Numbered from the stretch's first letter, positions 1 to 22,651 are shown. The stretch is 24,317 nt of DNA from Kofleriaceae bacterium (GCA_033763475.1 JANRKM010000012.1:1-24317), one strand, 5' to 3'. Translations and numbers: made by a program. Notes: generated by a model not told the origin, from the sequence alone.

Positions 1-4
1 GCTG

Positions 5-62
5 TGTGTCCGGGTTCCCGGACGCGATGTCCGGATGCCGGCCGGACACCGGACGTTCGACC
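5..62. repeat. Copy A of a ~55-bp palindromic GTCCGG/CCGGAC-rich repeat. The 24-nt core ccggacgcgatgtccggatgccgg is identical to copy B at 6638..6692.
   Basis: Direct alignment of 5..62 with 6638..6692 gives about 85% identity. Both contain TGTCCGG-N3-CCGGAC(G) half-site pairs. Confidence 0.7.
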
Positions 63-172
63 TAGAGGCCAAGACCCGCGTCGGACACGTTTCGGACACC
101 CACCACGATGAAGCTCGCCATCGCCAAGGCATCCACAATCAACCTCGGTCAGGGTCACCGGTGGTTTCGACC

Positions 173-544
173 ATGGGCGAGAACGCGCGCGAGGCGAGAG
201 AGTCGGTCTCGGACGCCGCGCGCCGGGCGCAGGATCGAGCGGGCGAGTTCGCGCGCGGAGCCGGCGACCAGGCGCGTCGCATCCGGCGGCGCAGCAGCGA
301 CCTGTATCGCGCCAATCCGATCGCGGTCGGCACGGCGTTGCTAGCGACCGGCACGATCATCGGGCTTGCGTTGCCGCGGACGAGACTGGAAGACGACTTG
401 ATCGGCGACAAGCGTGATGATGTCGTCGACAAGGGGAAGGAGCTCGCTCACCAGGCGCTCGGCAAGGCGAGCGAGAAGGTCAAGAACCTGGGAGGCGACG
501 AAGAGAGCCAGCGCGTCACCAAGCCCGGCGACGATTTTCACTAG
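173..544 (+). CDS. Hypothetical small membrane-anchored protein. One central TM helix (IAVGTALLATGTIIGLAL) between charged, helix-forming segments. Start is uncertain: ATG 173 sits inside the track ORF 35..544.
   Basis: ORF 35..544 is in frame. The region upstream of Met173 is Arg/His-rich and looks non-coding. There is a single hydrophobic segment with a K/E/D-rich C-terminus. The palindromic repeat lies directly upstream at 5..62. Confidence 0.4.
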   Translation: MGENAREARESVSDAARRAQDRAGEFARGAGDQARRIRRRSSDLYRANPIAVGTALLATGTIIGLALPRTRLEDDLIGDKRDDVVDKGKELAHQALGKASEKVKNLGGDEESQRVTKPGDDFH

Positions 545-693
545 GACCGCGCCGCTGAGGATCTGACCGGTTAACGCAGCCACCTTGAGGTGCCGTGGCG
601 TCCCAGCGGTTGGAGTTGGATAGGCACGGCCGAGCTTCTCTCGAGCACGCGTGCCTCGACCTTGGTGTTGATGCGCGCCTCGCGCACCCTGAG

Positions 694-1080
694 TCAGCGC
701 ATCTGCACGGTCGCCGGGGCGAGCCCCGGGGCCGTCACGGTGTATGCCGCGGTCGCGGTAGGAGGCACCGGACTGGACGGGTCGGGCGCCGCGACCTTGG
801 TCGGTACGATCAGGTTGATGCCGATGCCGACAGCGCCGACGCCGCCGAGCAGATAGCCGAAATATGCGTCCCCGGCGCTACCAAACGCACAACCAACGCT
901 CTCGCACTCCGAGTCGTCCAGGAAAGCGCTGACGAGCAGGGCCGCGCCGGTCGCTACGAGCAGGCCATTCGCGACGTAGCCGCCCTTCTTGGCCTGCGGG
1001 CTGCGTCCGAAGTAGCAGCCCGTTGACGGGGCAAGGGAGGCGACGAGGGCGAGCGACGCGATGGCATGGAGTGCACGCAT
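694..1080 (-). CDS. Small lipoprotein with a glycine-zipper motif (Rick_17kDa_Anti / Gly-zipper-like; GYLLGGVGAVGIGINLI)
   Basis: N-terminal signal peptide MRALHAIASLALVASLAPSTGC with Cys at position 22 as a lipobox-like site. Strong GC3 codon bias. The GxxxG-repeat hydrophobic segment is typical of 17-kDa surface-antigen-type lipoproteins. Confidence 0.5.
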   Translation of the reverse strand: MRALHAIASLALVASLAPSTGCYFGRSPQAKKGGYVANGLLVATGAALLVSAFLDDSECESVGCAFGSAGDAYFGYLLGGVGAVGIGINLIVPTKVAAPDPSSPVPPTATAAYTVTAPGLAPATVQMR

Positions 1081-1137
1081 GCCGCGACGGGCTGCAACCG
1101 ATGGACCATCGAGGCTTCGCGGGGTTGCGCGTGAAGC

Positions 1138-2136
1138 GTGCTGCGCATGGCGCGAACTAACGGGCGATTTTCAACGCGGTGCGGAGCTCGTGGTAACCGC
1201 GAGACGCCGTTCTTGCGCGTGGAGAACAACCAGGTGACGGATCTCGTCGAGGTCGAGACGCTCGATCACGTGTTCGTGCAGCTGCGGCTGTCGTATCGCG
1301 TGGACTTCGAGGGTGACCCGCTGCGGTGGTTCAACGTCGAGAACCACGTGAAGTTCCTGTGCGACCACGTGCGCTCGGTGCTGAAGGGCAAGATCCGGAA
1401 GGTGGCGATCGAGGCGTTCTATGCGTGCTCGACCGACCGCATCCGCGATCTGATCCTCGGCGTCCCGGCGGATGGTAAGCGCCCGGGGCTGCCGTTCCCC
1501 AACGGCATGCGCATCGTCGATGTCGACGTCCTCCTCGACGAGGCGCTGCTCGACCAGAGCCAGCACGAGGTCGTGCGCTCGAACATCGCGATGTCGAACC
1601 TCGGGCGCGAGCTCGCGGTGACCAAGCAGCGCGAGGCCATCGCGCGCGAGACCGCCGAGGTGAAGGCTCTCACGGCCGTTCGCCACGACGAGCTCTCGCG
1701 CGAGCTGGCCGCGAGCGAGCTCGCCACCGTGCTCGCGAAGCTGACCAACACGTTGCGCGAGACCGACGAGCGCAAGAAGGTCGTGGAGGCGGAGCAGACG
1801 ATCGAGGTCATCAAGCTGGAGAAGCGACTCGAGCGCGTGAAGCGCGAGCGCGAGCAGGAGCTGACGTTCTTCTCGCGCGAGCAGGACAAGCGCATCGAGC
1901 TGCTGCGGGCCGAGGCCGAGACCGCCGTCCAGCGGTTCACGGCAGCGTCGGGCAACTTCAGCGAGGCGCTGCTCCAGCTCGGCCGGCACGAGACGCTGGT
2001 CAAGGTCGCGCAGGGGTGGGGTGTGCAGCGGGTGATCGAGGGCGAGTCGCTCGGCGATACGCTGTCGCGGTTGTTCAACCACACGCTGCTCAAGCCGCTC
2101 GTTGACAAGCTCACGCTTGGCGATGAGACGGACTAA
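1138..2136 (+). CDS. SPFH (band-7 / flotillin / vault-shoulder-like) domain protein with a long C-terminal coiled coil
   Basis: The segment HVRSVLKGKIRKVAIEAFYACSTDRIRDLILG...MRIVDVDVL matches the C-terminal half of SPFH domains. It is followed by about 150 aa of heptad-like E/R/K/A-rich sequence. The N-terminal beta-strands of a full SPFH domain appear to be absent. Exact start is uncertain. Confidence 0.4.
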   Translation: MLRMARTNGRFSTRCGARGNRETPFLRVENNQVTDLVEVETLDHVFVQLRLSYRVDFEGDPLRWFNVENHVKFLCDHVRSVLKGKIRKVAIEAFYACSTDRIRDLILGVPADGKRPGLPFPNGMRIVDVDVLLDEALLDQSQHEVVRSNIAMSNLGRELAVTKQREAIARETAEVKALTAVRHDELSRELAASELATVLAKLTNTLRETDERKKVVEAEQTIEVIKLEKRLERVKREREQELTFFSREQDKRIELLRAEAETAVQRFTAASGNFSEALLQLGRHETLVKVAQGWGVQRVIEGESLGDTLSRLFNHTLLKPLVDKLTLGDETD

Positions 2137-2697
2137 CGAGGAAGCTCGGCGATCGCGAACGCGACGCCGGGCACCAAGCGCGGGCGCGCCACGTCGCCAT
2201 CGCGTAGCGTGTGCATGGTGGCGTAGTCCGTGGCTGACAGGTCCGTGTAGACCTCGATCGTCATGTTCTTCACGTTGACGATCCAGTACTCGGGCACGCC
2301 CGCCTCTGCATAGATCTCGAGCTTGGTCCTGCGGTCCTTGCGGAGCGAGGAGTTGCTGACCTCGATCAGCAGGAGCACGGCGGTGGGATGCCCACGCGGA
2401 CGATCCGCAGGCACGATCACGAGGTCAGGCTCGGGCTCCGACCATTCACTGGCCGCGAACGGCAGCGCAGGCCGGACGTTCAGCGACGGCTCGATGCTCC
2501 GCACCAGACGGTTCGTCAACCACTCGACGATGTCGCCGTGGGGCTCTCCCTGCGGACTCATCGCGACGATGACTCCGCAGCAGCTCCACCTTGTCGGACT
2601 TGCCGAGGATGCCGACCTCGACCATGTGGTCGTACTCGGCGCGCGAGAGGGGTCGCATGGCCTCGACGAGCTCGGGATCAACCATCGCTGACAGCAT
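2133..2697 (-). pseudogene. Uma2-family (DUF820) putative endonuclease, interrupted by a +1 frameshift near 2575–2595
   Basis: The N-terminus MLSAMVDPELVEAMRPLSRAEYDHMVEVGILGKSDKVELLR is in the frame of ORF 2446..3315. The rest of the protein is in the frame of ORF 2133..2744: VIVAMSPQGEPHGDIVEWLTNRL...PDLVIVPAD...VLLLIEVSNSSLRKDRRTKLEIYAEAGVPEYWIVN. Together these make a complete Uma2 signature (GEL..MSP..HG; PDL...E..S.S....D...K...Y...GV.EYW.V). Removing one base at 'cggAgtc' restores the frame. Confidence 0.6.
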
Positions 2698-2767
2698 ACA
2701 GCCTCCATGCGGCCGCGTCGGGTGCGTCCTGCGTGCCCGCGCAAGCCGTGAGAACCACATGCGGGCG

Positions 2768-2849
2768 CGTCCGGAGCGTTCCGATCTCGGACGGGCTGTC
2801 CGGTAACCGGACATCTTGTGCAAGTTGGTGAGTGTCCGGCGTTCGGACA
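2768..2849. promoter_or_regulatory. Divergent intergenic region carrying two 17-bp palindromes 36 bp apart, plus a flanking CGTCCGGA/TCGGACG inverted repeat: a candidate operator pair. The palindromes are TGTCCGGtaaCCGGACA at 2797–2813 (perfect) and TGTCCGGcgtTCGGACA at 2833–2849 (one mismatch).
   Basis: The palindromes were read directly from the sequence. They lie between the Uma2 start (2697, minus strand) and the lipoprotein start (2998, plus strand). Their centres are about 3.4 helical turns apart. Confidence 0.5.
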
Positions 2850-2997
2850 ATAGTGCCGGGGCCACTGGTCGCGGCATCTCCAAAGTCGAGTGCCTTGTCC
2901 CGGTCATGGGGATTCCGGCGACATGGCCGGAAATGTCGGGGGCAAAGCAGGCCTTTGCCGGCATTGTCCCTGGCTGGCATGGTCTATCGTCCACGCG

Positions 2998-4368
2998 ATG
3001 AAGAAGCTGCTTTGTCTCGTTACGTTGATGGCGTGTAGTGACCCGAGCGAACAGCAGCCGGTCGATGCCCCCTCCGGGGATGATAGCCAGATCGTCACCG
3101 ACGGACCGACCGACCGGCCCGTTACGGTGACGGTCATGGATGAGGGCGTCGGCGTCGCGGGCGTCAGCGTCTACTTCCAGCAGCCGGACCATACGGTCTT
3201 CACGAAGGTGGTGACCAACGCTTCGGGTGTGGCGGCCACCGTGGTCGCCGGCGGTGGCGCGGTCACCGTCGTCGATCCGTTCGCCAACAACACGCTGGCC
3301 GGAGCCCCGTCGCACTCGCTCAGGACCTACCTCGGGGTGCAGCCGGGCGACGAGCTCCTCGTGGTGGGTGACGATGACGGCGAGAACGCGACCGTGACGG
3401 TGACGATCCCGGCGATCAAGGACTTCGCCTTTGCCAATCTAGAGTCGTCGTGCGGCGGCACCACCCTCGAAGCGCTCACGGGCACCCAGGTCGAGCTCTA
3501 TGGCTGCGATGGCATGGCGGACCTCGTCGTCGTCGCGTACGACGAGCTCTCCAATCCGCTCGGCTACCTCTACAAGGCCAACGTCGCGATCACCGATCAG
3601 GGCACGGTGAACCTCGGCAGCGAGACGTACACCGCCGTCCCCAATGCGTCGTTCTCATACGCGAGCATCCCGGCGGCGTTCGGGAACGTGTTTGGTACCA
3701 ACACGCTCGTCTCTCCTCGCGGCACGATCTTCGCCACGACCTCCGGGTCCTCGCTCACCGCGGGCGCGGCCTCGGTCACGAAGCGACGTCCGCTGGTGAC
3801 GTCCACGACCTCGGTGCAGCAACTGGGATTCGATTCCGCGAGCCCGACGATGTCGGCGCACACCGTGTTCCACTGGCAACCGGCCGCGGCCGCGCACGCC
3901 TTCGACGGCACCGGCAAGTTCCTGCCCGACTTCACGGCGGCACCGAGCTACACGGCGGCGACCCGGCAGGTGTCGTGGACCTCGAGTGGCGGTGTACCGC
4001 CCGACCTCACATTCGTGTCGATCGACGCGGTCCGCAACTCCGCCGAAACGATGTTCTGGCAGTGGAAGCTGATCGCGCCCTACACCGCGACGACGTTGAC
4101 CCTCCCCGCGCTGCCCACGGAGATCGCGCAGTACGTGCCGCTTGCGACTGACTCGGTCGAGCTCGTCGAGCTCGGCGCCGCGAAGCTCCCCGGCGGCTAC
4201 GCGGCGGCGCGCCCGCTGTACTTCGCCAACCTGGACGGCCCCCCGATCACCGGCACGAGCGGCACGATCTCGCTGGTCTCCTACTCCGAGCCGAACACGG
4301 TGCGCACCACGGGACCGACGAAGGTCAAGGCCGCGATCAAGGCCAAGGCCCCGCGCGCCCGTCGCTGA
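2998..4368 (+). CDS. Large S/T/G/V-rich lipoprotein (hypothetical), predicted beta-rich. Track ORF 2890..4368; the likely start is ATG 2998.
   Basis: MKKLLCLVTLMACSDPSEQQ gives a signal peptide with Cys at +13 (lipobox-like LMAC). High GC3. Low-complexity T/S/V-rich body. K/A-rich C-terminal tail KVKAAIKAKAPRARR. Confidence 0.55.
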   Translation: MKKLLCLVTLMACSDPSEQQPVDAPSGDDSQIVTDGPTDRPVTVTVMDEGVGVAGVSVYFQQPDHTVFTKVVTNASGVAATVVAGGGAVTVVDPFANNTLAGAPSHSLRTYLGVQPGDELLVVGDDDGENATVTVTIPAIKDFAFANLESSCGGTTLEALTGTQVELYGCDGMADLVVVAYDELSNPLGYLYKANVAITDQGTVNLGSETYTAVPNASFSYASIPAAFGNVFGTNTLVSPRGTIFATTSGSSLTAGAASVTKRRPLVTSTTSVQQLGFDSASPTMSAHTVFHWQPAAAAHAFDGTGKFLPDFTAAPSYTAATRQVSWTSSGGVPPDLTFVSIDAVRNSAETMFWQWKLIAPYTATTLTLPALPTEIAQYVPLATDSVELVELGAAKLPGGYAAARPLYFANLDGPPITGTSGTISLVSYSEPNTVRTTGPTKVKAAIKAKAPRARR

Positions 4369-4525
4369 GCTTTCGTCACGTTCTCATCGACCTGCGTCGC
4401 TAGGGCTGCCGCGCTTCTCGAGAAAGAACGTGCGCTGCGCCGACGGCGAAGAACATCGCAACGTCTCGAGCAAGCGGCGCTGCACCCCCGGGGGCATCGT
4501 GCGCCACCAGTTCTCGTGGGGCGAC

Positions 4526-4631
4526 GAGGGTCAGACACTACTTCCACTACTAGCTGCTACTAGCTGCGCTGGTCACGCGAGTCGCTGTCCGGTGCCGGAC
4601 AAGTAAGTAGTGAAAGTAGTGTCTGACCCTG
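4526..4631. mobile_element. 106-bp MITE-like element or structured-RNA candidate with 24–25-bp terminal inverted repeats. Left arm gagGGTCAGACACTACTTCCACTAC, right arm GTAGTGAAAGTAGTGTCTGACCctg, one internal mismatch. The 56-bp loop contains a TAGCTGC direct repeat and the TGTCCGGtgCCGGACA palindrome (4586–4601).
   Basis: The inverted repeat was read directly. The arms are AT-richer than the surrounding DNA. The element sits in the non-coding gap downstream of the 2998..4368 gene. Confidence 0.5.
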
Positions 4632-4869
4632 CAGCTCCTGCAGCTCGTCGAGCGATGCCGAGCTCGAGGAGGTCCTCCGCGTCGCCGCGCACGCGCCGCG
4701 GGTGCCAGGGCGACTCGACGCCGGCTAGGGAATCCATCTCCGTTCTATGGTCCGCGCCGAGGAACACGACGCCGCGCTGGCCTGCCTCCAAGCCCCGGGC
4801 TGCGCGTGGAGCTCACGTCGACCGAGATCATGAGGGTCGCCGCGGGCGGCGTCGTGGGACGATGGGATC

Positions 4870-5376
4870 ATGAGCGTGGGCGTACCAAGATCGCTGGCGC
4901 GCGTCGCGCTTCTCCTCTTCGCGTGTGGACCGACAGAGCGCGCGAGTACGACGACACGACCGACGAGCCCAACGCGAGGGGCTGGACAGCGCAGCGCTCG
5001 GCTCGTCATTCAGACCACGTGGCACGAGCTCGAAGCCCCGCAGACAAGAGCACTCACCTCGGAGCTCGACGACTGCTTCGGTCGCGGGTTCAACCTCCAG
5101 GCCGTGCTCGATCGACTTCCCCGCGAGGGCCGCGATACCCTGCGCACGGCCGCATGCGCAGATCTTCACGTTTCCCGCCAAACTATACTGGGTGGCCGAG
5201 ATCCAGATCCCACTCGCGCTCGCCGGTGTCGTCCCGCGCCCATCGCGCAGCAGGTAATCGCAAGATCGCTTCGTGCTGCTTTCTGTAACCAGCTGCGCCA
5301 GCGCGTCGGCCGATGCGATCAACCGATTGCGAATCCGAGCCGAGGCAGGTCCTATCGGCTCGCGCATTTGTTGTAA
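4870..5376 (+). CDS. Possible small lipoprotein (MSVGVPRSLARVALLLFACGPTE...). Weak call, and the true 3' end is uncertain.
   Basis: Signal-peptide-like N-terminus with Cys at position 19. GC3 bias is good only over the first ~90 codons. The region has reduced GC, and the antisense ORF 4828..5427 is equally open. Confidence 0.2.
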   Translation: MSVGVPRSLARVALLLFACGPTERASTTTRPTSPTRGAGQRSARLVIQTTWHELEAPQTRALTSELDDCFGRGFNLQAVLDRLPREGRDTLRTAACADLHVSRQTILGGRDPDPTRARRCRPAPIAQQVIARSLRAAFCNQLRQRVGRCDQPIANPSRGRSYRLAHLL

Positions 5377-5493
5377 CGTGGTCACTCGTCGCATGTGTGG
5401 CGCTCGTGCAACGGCAACCAATGGCACCGCAGGTCGACGGCGAGATCACAGATGCACGGGTGCCTGGTGCGTAACTTGCTCGGGCACCGATCG

Positions 5494-6465
5494 ATGAAGC
5501 GTCGCGCGAGCGGAGTGATCCTCGCAGCGTGGCTCGTCGTGGGTTGCGCGAGGCAGCACCGCTACGTGAATCGCCCCGAGCAACCCGAGGAGGCCCTCGC
5601 CGCCGTCCAGCGCGAAGCGACCGAGCGCGGCCTGAAGCGCATCGGGCACCGTGCGTCGGCAGAGATCTATGTCGTCCCCGAACAGCGTGATCCGACGGGC
5701 TCACGATCCGTTTCGAGGGACGACGCGTCGTCGTGTACCGGATGGCCGTACTTCAGTCCCGAGCGATGTCTGTTCGTCCGTGCATTCCCGGCCACCGACG
5801 GTGGAAGCGTGGTCGAGATCGCGGGTGCGAACCTGGCGATCACCGAGGAGATGTTCCCCGGGGTACCGAGCCGGCGATTTGATCCCTTCCTCGTGCCACG
5901 CAAGCCGCTCGTCACGGACCTGAACATCCGCGTCGGAGTCGGGTCGTCATCGGAGAACGGCGTGTACCTCCGGATCGAGCCCGCGTTCTCCGTCGGCTGG
6001 CGAGTGCTCGAGTGGGGCGAGCGCTCGGCCCTCACGGGCGTCCGCACGGGCCTCATTCCTGGACTCGGCGTGGGCCTCGCCATGGATGCACGCGGCACCG
6101 CCCTGCGGCCAGAGCTCCACGTCGAGCTCGACCGGCAGCGCGCAGTCGATCCCGCCCCTGGCCGCACGATCCCACTCGGGCCCCGATCCGCTGTCGGGCT
6201 CTCGATCGCGGCGCTGATCGGCCTCGACGATGACCGTGGCGCGGTCGAGATTGGTGCGGACGCCCACGTCTGGCCGTGGGGCGGTGTGTTCGCGCGGGCG
6301 GGCTACGAGCTTCGATCGAGCTCGAACACGTACTTCGTGGCCGGGGTGCAGACCGACGGCGTCGCCACGGTGGTCGCCGCGGGCGTCTCGCTGCTGATCA
6401 TCGGCATCGTGTCGCTAGGTGACGTGGAGTGGAGCATTCCGTGCAGCCGATGTGAGAACCCGTAA
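5494..6465 (+). CDS. Hypothetical lipoprotein with a hydrophobic C-terminal segment. Track ORF 5395..6465; the start was chosen at ATG 5494.
   Basis: MKRRASGVILAAWLVVGCARQ gives a textbook lipobox, LVVGC. Strong GC3. The C-terminus VATVVAAGVSLLIIGIVSLG looks like a TM or anchor segment. Confidence 0.5.
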   Translation: MKRRASGVILAAWLVVGCARQHRYVNRPEQPEEALAAVQREATERGLKRIGHRASAEIYVVPEQRDPTGSRSVSRDDASSCTGWPYFSPERCLFVRAFPATDGGSVVEIAGANLAITEEMFPGVPSRRFDPFLVPRKPLVTDLNIRVGVGSSSENGVYLRIEPAFSVGWRVLEWGERSALTGVRTGLIPGLGVGLAMDARGTALRPELHVELDRQRAVDPAPGRTIPLGPRSAVGLSIAALIGLDDDRGAVEIGADAHVWPWGGVFARAGYELRSSSNTYFVAGVQTDGVATVVAAGVSLLIIGIVSLGDVEWSIPCSRCENP

Positions 6466-6488
6466 GCCGGTTCGCGCGGGCGCAGCCG

Positions 6489-6516
6489 ACAGCGCGGTCA
6501 ATTGCGCGCTGTCGCG
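6489..6516 (+). terminator. Perfect 10-bp GC-rich hairpin (CGACAGCGCG-gtcaatt-CGCGCTGTCG), 24 nt after the stop of the 5494..6465 gene. Terminator-like, but with no U-tract.
   Basis: Inverted repeat read directly. Its position is immediately 3' of a plus-strand gene. Confidence 0.3.
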
Positions 6517-6637
6517 GGCTTGGGCTTCGATCAGGCAATGGTAATAGGCGTTGTTGGTCTCGGCATCGGGCCGGGAGGCGCGCGGTTGCGCTCGCGATGA
6601 CCCTCATGCCGATGCAATGTCTAGAGGTTGCGTCGCT

Positions 6638-6692
6638 GCGTGTCCGTGCTCCGGACGCGATGTCCGGATGCCGGACGGACAGTCCGTCGACC
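6638..6692. repeat. Copy B of the palindromic GTCCGG/CCGGAC repeat. Contains TGTCCGG-atg-CCGGACG and CGGAC-a-GTCCG. It lies in a convergent intergenic region.
   Basis: Aligns with 5..62 (24-nt identical core). It sits between the 3' ends of the 5494..6465 (+) and 6842..7384 (−) genes. Confidence 0.7.
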
Positions 6693-6841
6693 CTGCGTGG
6701 TGAGGCGGCCGAAGCACCTCGCGCAGCACGTCCAAGCTCGGCGTATGCCAGCACGCGTGAAGCGCATAAGTGAAACTATGCGCCCTTGTTGCGCATCGGT
6801 CTCTGGCGCGAGACGCCATCGGCGTGACGAAAACACTACGC

Positions 6842-7384
6842 CTACGGGCTATCCATCATCCGCAGCAGCGCCGTCGTCGTGTTCCAGTTCCGGATCGTCA
6901 TCTGCTTGTAGACGGGGAGCGCCGCCACCTTGCCCATCCGGCTCTGCGTGCGTTTCGCCTCGAGCCGCGCGTAGTACAGCACCCCGCGTCCGGGCCACAC
7001 CTGGTCGACGCCGTCCTTGCGCGGCATCATCTCGGCCACCGCAGCCCCCGAGAGCGGCGGCATCAGGAACAGCACGTCATAGCGGTACTTCGCCGCCTGC
7101 GTGCCGAACCCCTCCGGCGCCTTGTCCACGATCGTGCGCATTTCGGACAGTGACCGCACGACCAGCGTCGCCTCGTACGCGAACGTCTTGGCGAGCATGG
7201 CCGCGATCTTCGTCAGGACGACGGCTTCTTTCGCGGCCGCCGAGAACACCACGTTGCCGCTCTGGATGTACGTGCCCACGTCGGTGAAGCCCTGCTTCTC
7301 GAAGCAGGCCTTCAGGTCCGTCATCTTGATCACGTTGTTGCCGCCGACATTGATGCCGCGCAGCAAGGCCACGTACCGCACCAT
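6842..7384 (-). CDS. DUF1697 family protein
   Basis: MVRYVALLRGINVGGNNVIKMTDLKACFEKQGFTDVGTYIQSGNVVF is the canonical DUF1697 N-terminal signature. The ORF is clean, at 180 aa. Its start codon is 2 nt after the stop of the upstream gene, so the two are translationally coupled. Confidence 0.8.
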   Translation of the reverse strand: MVRYVALLRGINVGGNNVIKMTDLKACFEKQGFTDVGTYIQSGNVVFSAAAKEAVVLTKIAAMLAKTFAYEATLVVRSLSEMRTIVDKAPEGFGTQAAKYRYDVLFLMPPLSGAAVAEMMPRKDGVDQVWPGRGVLYYARLEAKRTQSRMGKVAALPVYKQMTIRNWNTTTALLRMMDSP

Positions 7385-10460: not shown

Positions 10461-12464
10461 TTATGGTTCGGCGTCGTCGCTCGGCGTGACGTCGAACGGC
10501 GAATCCGACTCGACCTCGTCGGCGTCGTAGTCCCCCGTGTCGGGGAGCCGGCCGCGCTTGTTGGAGCCGAAGCCACCGAGGGCGCCGAACATCCCGCCCG
10601 ACGGCGTGCACGCGGCGACGGGCGCGGCCGGTAGCGCGCGGGCGGATCTGCGCAGCGTGCTGAACGAATGCCGCGCGACGGTGCCGTCGGTGCGGCCGAG
10701 GTAGATGTGGTCGCCCGCGAACACGAGGGACGTGGTGTTGGGCGCGGGCATGACGTCTGCGGACGATGCGCCCGGGCTCCACGCGACCAGCTTGCCGTCG
10801 GCGATCGCCGTGACGACGTCGCGCCCGTTCCACGCGATGGCCCGGTCCTGCGTGGCCTCGTGCGGGAACGCGAGCGAGGCGACGGGCTTGCCGGTCGTGG
10901 CATCCAGCACGGTGATGCCGCGCTCGTCGATGAACGCGACCCGCGCGCCATCGGGCGAGATGGCCGGGCCTTTGCCGCCGCATTCGTAGGGTGCCTCGAC
11001 GACGACCCGACGCTCGATCGCGTCGGCGATCGTGAGTTTGCGCGAGCCGTACATCGCGACGCGACGCCCGTCCGGCGTGGCGGATGCGTGGGCGTCACTG
11101 GTGAGATCCTCCGCGGGCGCCTCGGTGGCCCAGCGTTGTTTCAGCGTCTCGTCGAGCACGAACAACTGGCCGCTCGCCGTGTACCAGACGCCCCCGCCGG
11201 CGACCGGGCCCAGCTCGCGCACGAGGAGGCCGAGGCCGGTCCGGTCAGCGGACAGCGCGACATGATCGATTCGCGTCGCGCCGTGCCAGCGCTCGAGCAC
11301 AGTCTTGTCCCGCGGACGCAGCGTGAGCGCGACCAGCGTGACCTCGTCGTTCGTCGCGGTCGCCAGCACGTCGCGCGCGGGCCCGCCGAGCTCGATGATC
11401 GGCCGCGCGGTCTCGGTCGACCAGATCCACGCAGAGCCGTCGCCGAACGAGTGGGAGACGAGCATGCGCCCCGCGACGTCGAGCTCACGCACCTCGCCGC
11501 GCGTTCCCTCGATCTCTGCGAGCGGCTTCCAGTCGGAGGTGCGCCACAGATGCAACACGTTGTCGTTGCCGCCGAGCGCGAGCAGGTCACCACGCGGCGA
11601 CCAGGCGAGCGTGCGCACGTATGCCTGCGAGCCGCGCAGCGTGGTGACGGGCTCGCCGCCGGGCAGCGCGACCACGCGCACTTCCTCCTCGCACGCGATC
11701 GCGAGCCGATCGCTGGCGGCGTTGATCGCGAGTGCGCCTGGATTGCAGCTGAACGGCACCGACGCGAGGGTCTTGCCGTCGTCGACGCGGTAGACGTCGA
11801 CCTCCCAGTGATCGTGCTTGCCCGAGAACGTGCCGACGGCCAGCAGCGCATGGTCGGGAGACAGCCCGTAGATGCTCGTGTTGCCGAGCGCGAAGATGCG
11901 ATGGCGCTTGCCGGTCGCGAGGTCCCAGATGCCGACGGTTTGCTGCGAGCGGCCTGCGACGACCCACGTGCCGACGATCTCCGGCGACGCGTAGTGCCGC
12001 GAGTGCTCGAGGGCGATGCCCGGCTTGCGACTCGCGAGGTCGAACACGGTGAGCGGGGTCCCCTCCTCGCCGCCGACCACCGCGCGCGTGCCGTCGGAGG
12101 CTACGCGCCTGGCTGCGACTGCGGTGAATGGCGTGGTCTTTCCCGTGCGGACGTCGACGACGACGGGCTTGTCACCGGCGAGGAGGAGCGACTGCGCATC
12201 GAGGAACGCCACGCCGCTGGTCCACGGGAGCAGGCCTTCGGCCACCACGCGGCGCCTGCCGGTACGATCGAACGCGACGACCGATCCGCCCGCGGTGGTG
12301 ACGATGACGTCGTCACCGTGAAACCCGATGTGCTCGAGCGAGCCCGGCACGCGCCACTCCTCGGCGCCGAATACGGCGGCCACCGGATCGCGCTCCGGCG
12401 ACGAGGTGACCTGCGCGCTACCGCACGCCAGTAGGGTCGTAGATACGACGACAGCTCGCAGCAT
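10461..12464 (-). CDS. Lipoprotein with WD40-type beta-propeller repeats. Track ORF 10461..12773; the start was chosen at MLRAVVVSTTLLACG (12464).
   Basis: Signal peptide with lipobox LLAC. Multiple WD-like repeats: LAWSPRGDLLALGGNDNVLHLWRTSD, VSHSFGDGSAWIWS, ALSADRTGLGLLV and others. Strong GC3. The overlapping antisense ORF 10668..12434 was rejected. Confidence 0.65.
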   Translation of the reverse strand: MLRAVVVSTTLLACGSAQVTSSPERDPVAAVFGAEEWRVPGSLEHIGFHGDDVIVTTAGGSVVAFDRTGRRRVVAEGLLPWTSGVAFLDAQSLLLAGDKPVVVDVRTGKTTPFTAVAARRVASDGTRAVVGGEEGTPLTVFDLASRKPGIALEHSRHYASPEIVGTWVVAGRSQQTVGIWDLATGKRHRIFALGNTSIYGLSPDHALLAVGTFSGKHDHWEVDVYRVDDGKTLASVPFSCNPGALAINAASDRLAIACEEEVRVVALPGGEPVTTLRGSQAYVRTLAWSPRGDLLALGGNDNVLHLWRTSDWKPLAEIEGTRGEVRELDVAGRMLVSHSFGDGSAWIWSTETARPIIELGGPARDVLATATNDEVTLVALTLRPRDKTVLERWHGATRIDHVALSADRTGLGLLVRELGPVAGGGVWYTASGQLFVLDETLKQRWATEAPAEDLTSDAHASATPDGRRVAMYGSRKLTIADAIERRVVVEAPYECGGKGPAISPDGARVAFIDERGITVLDATTGKPVASLAFPHEATQDRAIAWNGRDVVTAIADGKLVAWSPGASSADVMPAPNTTSLVFAGDHIYLGRTDGTVARHSFSTLRRSARALPAAPVAACTPSGGMFGALGGFGSNKRGRLPDTGDYDADEVESDSPFDVTPSDDAEP

Positions 12465-22186: not shown

Positions 22187-22651
22187 GTGCAGAAGAAGCG
22201 CCCGTGTTCGATCTGCGGTTGCTGGTTCTCGACTGACGTTCGCGTAGGTCAGCGCCAGCGCACCTGTGGGAGCGACGCGTGTCAGCGCGAGTTGCATCGT
22301 CGAGCAGATCGACGGTGGCGCGCCAAGAATCCCAGTTACGACAGAGAGCGCCGCATGGGCGCGCAGCTCGAGAAGGCGCGAGCGGCAGCTACGGCGAAGG
22401 CGGCGGGGCTGCCGGTCGATAGCGCCGCAGTGCCGCCGTCACCGCATGCACCTGCGCCGACCTCCGGATTGCCCTGGGACCTCGTGCAAGACGAGATGGG
22501 GGTGGAAGCTCGTGTAATCATTTCGGGAGTGACGGGAGTTCTCGGGGTGTACGTGCAAGATGAGATACGTCGTCAAGTCCGCGATGTTGTTCCGGGAGTA
22601 GCGGGAGTTCTCGGCGGTAGCGCGCAAGACGAGATGGCCCCGGGAGGGTAG
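22187..22651 (+). CDS. Possible small Zn-ribbon protein (RPCSICGCWF…RTCGSDACQRELHRR). Its C-terminal half is encoded by 69-bp tandem repeats. The coding status is uncertain.
   Basis: GTG-start ORF with four Cys arranged CxxC…CxxxxC. The repeat-encoded peptide is VQDE(M/I)…GV(T/A)GVLG(V/G). GC is reduced across the repeats. The call is weak. Confidence 0.25.
   Translation: MQKKRPCSICGCWFSTDVRVGQRQRTCGSDACQRELHRRADRRWRAKNPSYDRERRMGAQLEKARAAATAKAAGLPVDSAAVPPSPHAPAPTSGLPWDLVQDEMGVEARVIISGVTGVLGVYVQDEIRRQVRDVVPGVAGVLGGSAQDEMAPGG
22483..22651 (+). repeat. About 2.45 copies of a 69-bp tandem direct repeat. The unit is cgtgcaagaYgagat…YcgggagtRRcgggagttctcggSgg.
   Basis: Unit 1 is 22483–22551, unit 2 is 22552–22620 and the partial unit 3 is 22621–22651. 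About 70% identity between full units, with conserved motif blocks at both ends. Confidence 0.6.

Follow-up and report, generated by a model that had tools for sequence, protein, structure and literature searches.

The window analyzed here is a complete contig of 24,317 nucleotides (68% G+C) from a Kofleriaceae metagenome-assembled genome (MAG), and our evidence from the source genome is this single contig. Its first 6.7 kb contains a gene at 173-544, an MVP-shoulder gene, a Uma2 gene and a lipoprotein gene, together with a family of short inverted repeats, or dyads, related to TGTCCGG-N3-CCGGACA, which we favor as a repeat borne by a transposase-gene cassette. All seven palindromes listed in an earlier sequence-only reading are present, as are its two ~55-bp copies with a 24-nt identical core (CCGGACGCGATGTCCGGATGCCGG, at 18-41 and 6651-6674). 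That reading took 7-bp arms to be constant; perfect 7-bp arms are found at only two sites (exact TGTCCGG-N1-5-CCGGACA at 2797-2813 and 4586-4601, with none expected), and what all of the sites share is a 5-bp core, GTCCG...CGGAC, with arms of 5-7 bp at the remaining ones. Additional dyad sites are located at 2769-2792 and 6674-6688 (GACGGACAGTCCGTC), a pair of CGGACA half-sites lies at 82-98, and the site at 4586-4601 is the tip of a 102-nt hairpin element at 4528-4629 (Table 1).

The pattern GTCCG-N4-6-CGGAC occurs eight times in the window, compared with 0.65 +/- 0.78 expected from 1000 dinucleotide shuffles (maximum 4), and GTCCGG-N2-4-CCGGAC occurs four times against 0.04 expected. Six of the eight matches are intergenic in a window that is ~78% coding (binomial P = 0.002), and all six are confined to the first 6.7 kb; the two coding matches, at 11239 and 23809, are close to chance expectation. 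The intergenic bias described by the sequence-only reading is therefore upheld at the scale of the window by shuffling and by the coding/intergenic comparison, and we reject a chance origin for the sites, at eight against 0.65 expected and mostly intergenic. The 24-mer core has no match in a metagenome scan, Rfam contains no family matching the window dyads, and a generic repeat finder applied to the whole window returned mostly GC-rich noise.

Table 1. Dyad-bearing and cassette-related features of the window
Feature	Coordinates	Strand	Details
Dyad module, cassette copy 1	7-54	+	TGTCCGGGTTCCCGGAC 7-23; TGTCCGGATGCCGGCCGGACA 28-48; extra CCGGAC 49-54
Two direct CGGACA half-sites, CGGACAcgtttCGGACA	82-98	+	Also in many cassette dyad modules (cf. 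L148, L156, L161)
Single array unit of the cassette, ATCAACCTCGGTCAGGGTCACC (...ACCGAGGTTGAT on the opposite strand)	138-159	+	Distal side of the copy 1 dyads
Solo cluster of three dyads	2769-2849	+	GTCCGGAGCGTTCCGATCTCGGAC 2769-2792; perfect 17-mer 2797-2813; TGTCCGGCGTTCGGACA 2833-2849
102-nt hairpin element	4528-4629	+	24-nt inverted arms GGGTCAGACACTACTTCCACTACT / AGTAGTGAAAGTAGTGTCTGACCC; perfect 16-mer dyad 4586-4601 near tip
RAYT-like gene remnant, codons ~26-46, RPDAETNNAYYHCLIEAQAR	6514-6574	-	tblastn, hmmsearch, blastn, alignment
Decayed leader, copy 2	6575-6640	-	Conserved box CGCAACCTCTAG kept; collinear with L194
Dyad module, cassette copy 2	6641-6688	+	TGTCCGTGCTCCGGAC 6641-6656; TGTCCGGATGCCGGAC 6661-6676; GACGGACAGTCCGTC 6674-6688

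The association with a transposase-like gene emerged from relatives. GTDB species-representative genomes were scanned for the double dyad GTCCG-N4-5-CCGGAC-N4-TGTCCGG-N3-CCGG; the stems and the 4-nt linker were imposed by this pattern, and their conservation in the loci recovered reflects that selection. The scan gave 27 loci, many of them at contig ends, and 18 bear the label Kofleriaceae, Myxococcales or Deltaproteobacteria. Six contigs of the Kofleriaceae MAG F1F2.bin.256 carry a near-identical segment in which a double dyad is positioned about 70-100 nt upstream of a 297-aa open reading frame (ORF). A gene 54% identical to it has the same dyad arrangement in another MAG (L147), and one only 24% identical has dyads on both sides in a third (L137). 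Matches in Streptomyces, Actinomycetota and Thermoanaerobaculia fall within long ORFs and look like chance. A search of metagenomes with the family alignment yielded a further 80 loci, chosen by protein alone and free of the bias noted above; many are 1-2.5-kb contigs holding little beyond the gene. Gene calls in these other loci are crude GC3-based ORF calls. The MAG F1F2.bin.256 has at least six near-identical 5' ends of this cassette, and two 20-kb stretches taken from Mb-scale contigs have a single cassette copy each. Four MAGs labelled 'uncultured Rickettsiales' (L122, L130, L135 and L140; SRP077602) have 65-72% G+C and myxobacterial-type double dyads, and the label looks doubtful.

The 297-aa product resembles HUH/Tyr transposases, and we refer to the gene as RAYT-like, after the tyrosine transposases associated with repetitive extragenic palindromic (REP) sequences. 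Its homologues number more than 2,277, most of them from soil metagenomes (mostly Kofleriaceae/Myxococcota), and JGI names several of these 'putative transposase' or 'REP-associated tyrosine transposase'. The family alignment, with 22 members, has an invariant NHHH (HUH) motif, an invariant Y119 within VYxxxNPV, and WPG, and N58-H59-(H60)-H61 and Y119 are also invariant in an alignment of 35. NCBIfam NF047646 (REP_Tyr_transpos) is matched by all 22 members, with a best E of 6.7e-16; the first member matches the whole profile with E 7.6e-7 and 29 bits, under the 80-bit cutoff. Pfam Y1_Tnp (PF01797) matches six of the 22 weakly, and a sequence-profile search of the PDB with the family gave no match. 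The best Foldseek match to an AF2 model (pLDDT 89.4) is 4ER8_A, the E. coli TnpA-REP bound to a REP hairpin (prob 1.0; target-normalised TM 0.72; root mean square deviation 2.4 A over 148 columns), and the next structural matches are the TnpA proteins of ISDra2, IS608 and IS200. The HUH/Tyr motifs, the NF047646 matches and the fold of the model together indicate that the N-terminal half is a genuine Y1 HUH transposase domain, as modelled; residues ~150-297 form a helical C-terminal extension of ~150 aa.

The two composite copies in the window are homologous to the 5' regions of this cassette. In copy 2 the dyads adjoin a decayed leader and a stump of the gene on the minus strand, where ~75 nt of N-terminal coding sequence are deleted and the remainder of the gene is missing. 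The family profile identifies a fragment at 6418-6603 (minus strand; profile positions 27-54; hmmsearch E 4.5e-4), and blastn with 6514-6574 finds matching coding sequence in more than 40 loci, the best being the metagenome locus L194 (85% over 61 nt, E 2e-13). A global alignment of copy 2 with L194 is collinear through the dyads, the CGCAACCTCTAG box, a promoter motif, the start codon, the ~75-nt deletion and codons ~26-46. The promoter motif, which is of the sigma-54 type described below, has been destroyed in copy 2 by a ~12-nt deletion, and a position weight matrix (PWM) scan finds no promoter there. In view of the collinearity with L194 and the gene remnant, copy 2 represents the upstream region of a dead minus-strand transposase-like gene, and not the 3' or convergent element for which the dyads at 6640-6676 had been taken.

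Copy 1 lies at the extreme left of the window: the contig begins 4 nt before its dyad module, and the duplicated element spans 5-62. The module, in which the TGTCCGGATGCCGGCCGGACA dyad is a variant with nine nucleotides between the 5-bp cores, fits the double-dyad pattern that adjoins RAYT-like genes in Kofleriaceae MAGs, and the array unit at 138-159 has the place and orientation seen in intact cassettes if the transposase gene is to the left of the contig start. By this resemblance, copy 1 (5-159) is a cassette 5' region cut by the contig end, with its gene predicted to lie beyond it. The sites at 7-55, previously assigned to the promoter side of the gene at 173-544, would face that predicted gene instead.

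Intact cassettes have a regular organization. Among the dyads (GTCCG-N3-7-CGGAC) in 82 cassette loci, 49 are situated at -300 to 0 relative to the start of the gene, with a peak at -130 to -80, one is within a gene and four are within 400 nt downstream. The remaining 242 kb around the cassettes contains eight, a density expected by chance, and no fewer than three of these are in partial duplicates of the upstream region. A module usually consists of two or three dyads ~20 bp apart. Between the cores, 42 of 43 dyads have a spacer of exactly 5 nt whose sequence is unconstrained (9 and 16 nt are the next commonest lengths), and the 5-bp half-sites are one helical turn apart. The flanking positions are (C/T) at -1 and (A/G) at +1, GTC is within the stem, and no unpaired GTAG-type tag is found on cassette dyads. 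The half-site is identical across proteins that are only 50-60% identical.

Downstream of the dyads, in about 60 of 79 loci, is the motif TGGC-N7-TTGC, with the spacing of sigma-54 -24/-12 elements, ~25 nt before the start codon; in a subgroup of loci it is about 68-78 nt before the start. The fuller form is T-G-G-C-N6-C-T-T-G-(C/A)-T; the search had not required the T that precedes GG, the C that follows it or the CT ahead of TG. In 38 of 52 loci the last half-site lies 41-43 nt from the -24 GG, even though what separates them differs in sequence from locus to locus. Dyads and motif also tend to be retained or lost together: 52 loci have both, three have neither, seven have dyads with a sub-threshold motif and one shows the reverse (Fisher P 0.011).

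A third component, recognized in L150-L229, is an array of short units with the core CCGGGGTT(A/G), present in variable number 120-400 nt either side of the gene; outside the core the unit sequence differs between genomes. Upstream of the gene there are 3.2 forward units per kb versus 0.18 reverse, and downstream 2.3 reverse per kb versus 0.23 forward. Because the orientation is opposite on the two sides, the units constitute inverted arrays that bracket the gene, and it may be these units, rather than the dyads, that are the real substrates of the transposase. Two further elements follow the gene in some loci. A small conserved hairpin, CGCCGTCGCGGCG(TGG), is located 50-70 nt after the stop codon in L172, L176, L180, L183, L203, L209, L217, L218, L225, L227 and others, and a second subgroup has GCTGC(C/G)GCATTCCGGA in its place.

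The explanation we favor is that the dyads are a cassette-borne repeat, constituting neither a terminator family nor a free-standing regulon. A cassette has the order CCGGGGTT array, dyads, 41-43-nt spacer, TGGC-N7-TTGC, 297-aa gene and inverted array. We infer that the dyads most likely bind protein as duplex DNA: they would be recognized by a dimeric activator and act as an upstream site of the enhancer-binding-protein type for the cassette promoter, which, judging from its motif, would depend on sigma-54, or alternatively they could be an operator for the cassette's own protein at that promoter. Duplex recognition is suggested by the one-sided placement of the dyads, by a 5-nt spacer that is fixed in length and free in sequence, and by the tandem arrangement at ~20 bp; by the rigid 41-43-nt offset, the joint loss of dyads and motif, and the near-absence of dyads elsewhere in the carrier genomes; and by the fact that array units, not dyads, flank the gene symmetrically. 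Within the window, cassette 5' regions would have been copied into the contig and then decayed, leaving 5-159 cut by the contig end, 6514-6692 fused to a dead gene remnant, and two promoter-less solo sites. We judge the chances to be about even that the window dyads are duplex enhancer or operator sites of the RAYT-like cassette spread in this way.

Several observations weigh against this explanation. The sigma-54 assignment is a consensus match only, and in about 30% of sites the -12 element is TTGA instead of TTGC. Several MAGs have single and double dyads without any RAYT-like gene in short gaps between genes, next to 5' as well as 3' gene ends; a sigma-54 PWM search within 250 nt of such cassette-free dyads found motifs at three of 19, with 3.4 expected and thus no enrichment, and their pattern looks like the insertion of a small mobile unit rather than the decay of whole cassettes. 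Finally, the window dyads have arms of 6-7 bp, longer than the 5-bp core, and fold well as single-stranded DNA, and the nearest solved relative of the protein, TnpA-REP, binds single-stranded hairpins.

A different explanation, which we regard as possible although rather unlikely, is that the dyads are REPs of the REP/REPIN type: hairpins in single-stranded DNA that the RAYT-like transposase recognizes, nicks and copies, the copy beside the gene being a 'master' REP and the solos and doublets its transposed progeny. It draws on the adjoining transposase-like gene, whose nearest structure is TnpA-REP on a REP hairpin, on the folding of the longer-armed window dyads, and on the solos and doublets in short gaps, which lack a promoter motif in the window as well as in other MAGs. 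Matches at contig ends, as expected of multi-copy repeats, and the ~10-fold intergenic enrichment in the window also agree with it. The cassette loci nevertheless argue otherwise, as the dyads are one-sided and at chance density outside the -300 to 0 interval, conservation extends over just 5 bp of stem, around a spacer of fixed length and free sequence, and the dyads co-occur with the promoter motif at a rigid spacing. The inverted elements that flank the gene in REP or terminal inverted repeat (TIR) style are the CCGGGGTT array units, and the GTAG-type tag is lacking. REPs normally co-diverge with their RAYT, yet here one half-site accompanies proteins that have diverged to 50-60% identity. 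The favored explanation and this one are not mutually exclusive.

Among the closest known systems are the REPtrons (E. coli TnpA-REP/yafM and Pseudomonas REPIN-RAYT; Nunvar 2010, PMC2817692; Bertels 2017, PMC5581495). They and the cassette share short GC-rich extragenic palindromes beside an HUH/Tyr gene, doublets or clusters in alternating orientation, and intergenic copies. The dyads here differ in being shorter (15-17 nt with 5-7-bp arms) and without an unpaired GTAG tag, and in being one-sided and not above chance elsewhere in most carrier genomes. They also stand at a fixed distance from a promoter-like motif, and the protein carries an extra ~150 aa at its C terminus and falls short of the NCBIfam cutoff. 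REPs are typically about 20-40 nt long, as against 15-17 nt here, and typically have more than 100 copies; the dyads share their extragenic location, the doublets of other MAGs being mostly intergenic too, and depart from them in copy number (in the relatives tested), in the unpaired tag and in two-sided flanking. Both proposals of the sequence-only reading, REP-like hairpins or operators of a dimeric regulator, survive in sharper form; that reading had already remarked that a simple operator would not account for all sites. The dyads are REP-like by association, being tied to a RAYT-like gene, yet in more than 80 related loci their behavior is that of a fixed duplex regulatory module at the promoter of that gene, and not that of a dispersed hairpin repeat.

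Two other groups of transposase genes also offer parallels. TIRtrons contain RAYT-like genes (TIRYTs) flanked by inverted repeats with the G-rich motif GGGGWSAS (Di Nocera 2013, PMC3733652), and some reported subclasses of TnpA-Y1 lack REPs and have a large C-terminal domain (Quentin 2018, PMC6006769). The cassette resembles a TIRtron in that the gene is flanked by inverted repeats other than classical REPs, the protein is longer than RAYTs, and a flanking G-rich core (here CCGGGGTTAG, compared with the published GGGGWSAS) occurs at similar distances from the gene; it differs in that its flanks are arrays of short units in variable number, not a single long TIR (PMC3733652). Neither a dyad module nor a sigma-54-type motif is described for TIRtrons in the text consulted, and Myxococcota are not mentioned in the literature searched on REPtrons, TIRtrons and TnpA-Y1. 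A literature search for sigma-54 or enhancer-binding proteins together with tyrosine transposases or IS200 returned nothing relevant among the papers listed, and one for the dyad motif string returned irrelevant matches only. Members of the IS200/IS605 family (IS608, ISDra2) have the same Y1 HUH fold and a hairpin-forming sequence upstream of the gene, but both of their ends carry similar hairpins, oriented alike on the strand and beside fixed cleavage sites, whereas the dyads here are 5' only (49 upstream versus four downstream) and interior to the flanking arrays. REPs with CGTC or TGTC tags likewise begin with (C/T)GTC, have a short stem and a 4-5-nt loop, and are frequently dimers; in CGTC REPs, however, the tag is unpaired, the stems are 8-9 bp and start with A/T pairs, and no transposase accompanies them (Di Nocera 2013, PMC3733652), whereas GTC is in the stem here and a transposase-like gene goes with the repeat.

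The upstream activator sites of sigma-54 promoters, such as those of NtrC at glnAp2 or the upstream activator sequence (UAS) of NifA, TGT-N10-ACA, are a close regulatory counterpart. The cassettes are similar to these in having tandem ~15-17-bp dyads, about two helical turns apart, upstream of TGGC-N7-TTGC. Activator sites are usually placed at -100 to -150, whereas the dyad centers here are ~55-100 bp upstream of the -24 GG; the cassettes of relatives have their dyads in the position of an upstream site, and no window copy does, the window copies being without a promoter. The dyad sequence matches no activator site familiar to us: the NifA UAS and the MrpC site (GTGTC-N8-GACAC) agree with the 16-mer at 4586 alone, the common form with its N5 core being unlike either.

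Intrinsic terminators or mRNA-stabilizing 3' hairpins would be another possible role for such GC-rich stems, given that 6641-6688 lies between convergent genes and that some MAG solos follow stop codons. No dyad is followed by a T-run, however, and in positions 1-7000 a terminator scan detects nothing but one unrelated site, at 6778-6796. A perfect palindrome reads identically on either strand, Rfam offers no match, and the cassette dyads are upstream of the promoter motif and hence outside that transcript. We consider this role extremely improbable and reject it, given the missing T-runs, the scan and the position of the dyads relative to the cassette promoter motif.

The two remaining dyad sites in the window are not attached to recognizable cassettes. 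The cluster at 2769-2849 sits between the Uma2 and lipoprotein genes, folds as single-stranded DNA with -25.3 kcal/mol (z -4.8), and has BLAST similarity to relatives restricted to the dyads themselves (E 0.002-0.04). Its TGTCCGGCGTTCGGACA dyad has 6-bp arms, and GTCCGGAGCGTTCCGATCTCGGAC (GTCCGG-N13-CGGAC, ending gatctCGGAC) resembles the 'GTCCGG..gatctCGGAC' type of module in L197, L201 and L202. By this resemblance the cluster is probably a third cassette relic. The 102-nt hairpin element (dG -33.3 kcal/mol, z -6.2) has an arm motif, GTCAGACACTACT..CACTACT, that recurs once, at L226 129-151, ~200 nt upstream of a RAYT-like gene, and a cassette end may have given rise to it as a derivative akin to a miniature inverted-repeat transposable element. 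No sigma-54 promoter motif was found by PWM near 2769-2849 or the other window dyad copies, and we infer that the sites at 2769-2849 and 4586-4601 are promoter-less relics without present function.

Alternatively, these solo sites could belong to a host regulon, in which a chromosomal dimeric regulator recognizes TGTCCGG-N3-CCGGACA at numerous promoters, that of the cassette being one target among them, and controls Uma2, the lipoprotein gene and their neighbors. The half-sites do have an operator-like geometry, 2797-2849 is in a divergent intergenic region, and tandem arrays of the same palindrome in unrelated viral contigs suggest a protein-binding site. We nonetheless hold this explanation to be improbable, because away from cassettes, in 242 kb of related genomes, the motif occurs at chance density. 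Two of the four window clusters are demonstrable cassette fragments, solo dyads elsewhere are just past stop codons (L140, L128), the Uma2 gene beside 2769-2849 is frameshifted, and the solos share no promoter motif.

A scan of viral contigs for the simple palindrome gave at least 120 matches and was not informative about the origin of the window dyads. In L073 (IMGVR_UViG_3300024518_000011), seven tandem copies of TGTCCGGAAACCGGACA with a 20-22-nt period are at 6316-6460, and five other viral contigs (L037, L049, L055, L056 and L075) have two copies 164-176 nt apart; the TGTCCGGAAACCGGACA palindrome seems to be used as an array in these unrelated contigs. In a Symbiobacterium thermophilum MAG, from an unrelated phylum, three tandem GTCCGG-N3-CCGGAC copies with different loops are situated directly past a gene end (L144 7415-7466).

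Decay and rearrangement seem to have affected the first 6.7 kb of the contig, in view of the Uma2 frameshift, the short MVP-shoulder gene, the unrelated flanks of the MVP segment and the transposase stump. In the Uma2 gene (2133-2700, minus strand), the N-terminal 'MVDPELVEAMRPLSRAEYDHMVEVGILGKSDKVELL' and the rest, 'GVIVAMSPQGEPHGDIVEW...', are in different frames, which denotes either a pseudogene or an assembly error. The MVP-shoulder gene (1138-2136, 332 aa) is without the N-terminal Vault_3 part of its homologues (411-579 aa), and a JGI metagenome contig (L231 10153-11098, 946 nt) matches the segment 1200-2122 at 91.5% identity and has unrelated flanks on both sides, which places the segment in different contexts in the two genomes. 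Comparison of filled and empty sites gave no orthologous intergenic region, either with lipoprotein homologues (50% identity, no synteny) or with the MVP-like gene homologue (unrelated flanks).

Other sequences in the window resemble cassette parts to varying degrees. CTGGCATGGTCTATCGT (2973-2997), ~25 nt before the lipoprotein ATG at 2998, has a good -24-like TGGCA at the distance typical of cassettes and no -12 TTGC (PWM score 2), and is either a decayed cassette promoter or a coincidence. A sigma-54-type motif, CCTGGTGCGTAACTTGCTCGG (5463-5483, PWM score 13.8), is 28 nt before the ATG at 5494 of a lipoprotein-like gene; its geometry is that of the RAYT-like cassettes, but there are no dyads upstream. 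Further along, 22466-22635 consists of three tandem 69-nt units that are about 70-78% identical.

On the explanation we favor, the window palindromes are what is left of cassette copies that died or were truncated in a decaying region, and do not denote a host regulon; for annotation, the cassette accounts for contig breaks at these palindromes. Among the 'domesticated transposase' genes of bacteria, those for RAYTs and TIRYTs rank with the most common. The family described here is a Myxococcota clade of very large size, and its non-coding architecture of inverted unit arrays, dyad module and sigma-54-type motif is rigid and conserved, which makes the identity of a dyad-binding protein, RpoN dependence, and the choice between dyads and array units as transposase substrate amenable to testing. 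We put forward tentatively, as something the sequences make possible and no stronger than that, that a large uncharacterized Myxococcota RAYT/TIRYT-like clade is transcribed from a sigma-54 promoter whose enhancer is the GTCCG-N5-CGGAC dyads at 41-43 nt. If this is true, expression of a (perhaps domesticated) single-strand DNA transposase would be wired into the enhancer-binding-protein signalling network of the host, and enhancer modules released from the cassette, as in this contig, could give rise to further activator-binding sites elsewhere in the genome.

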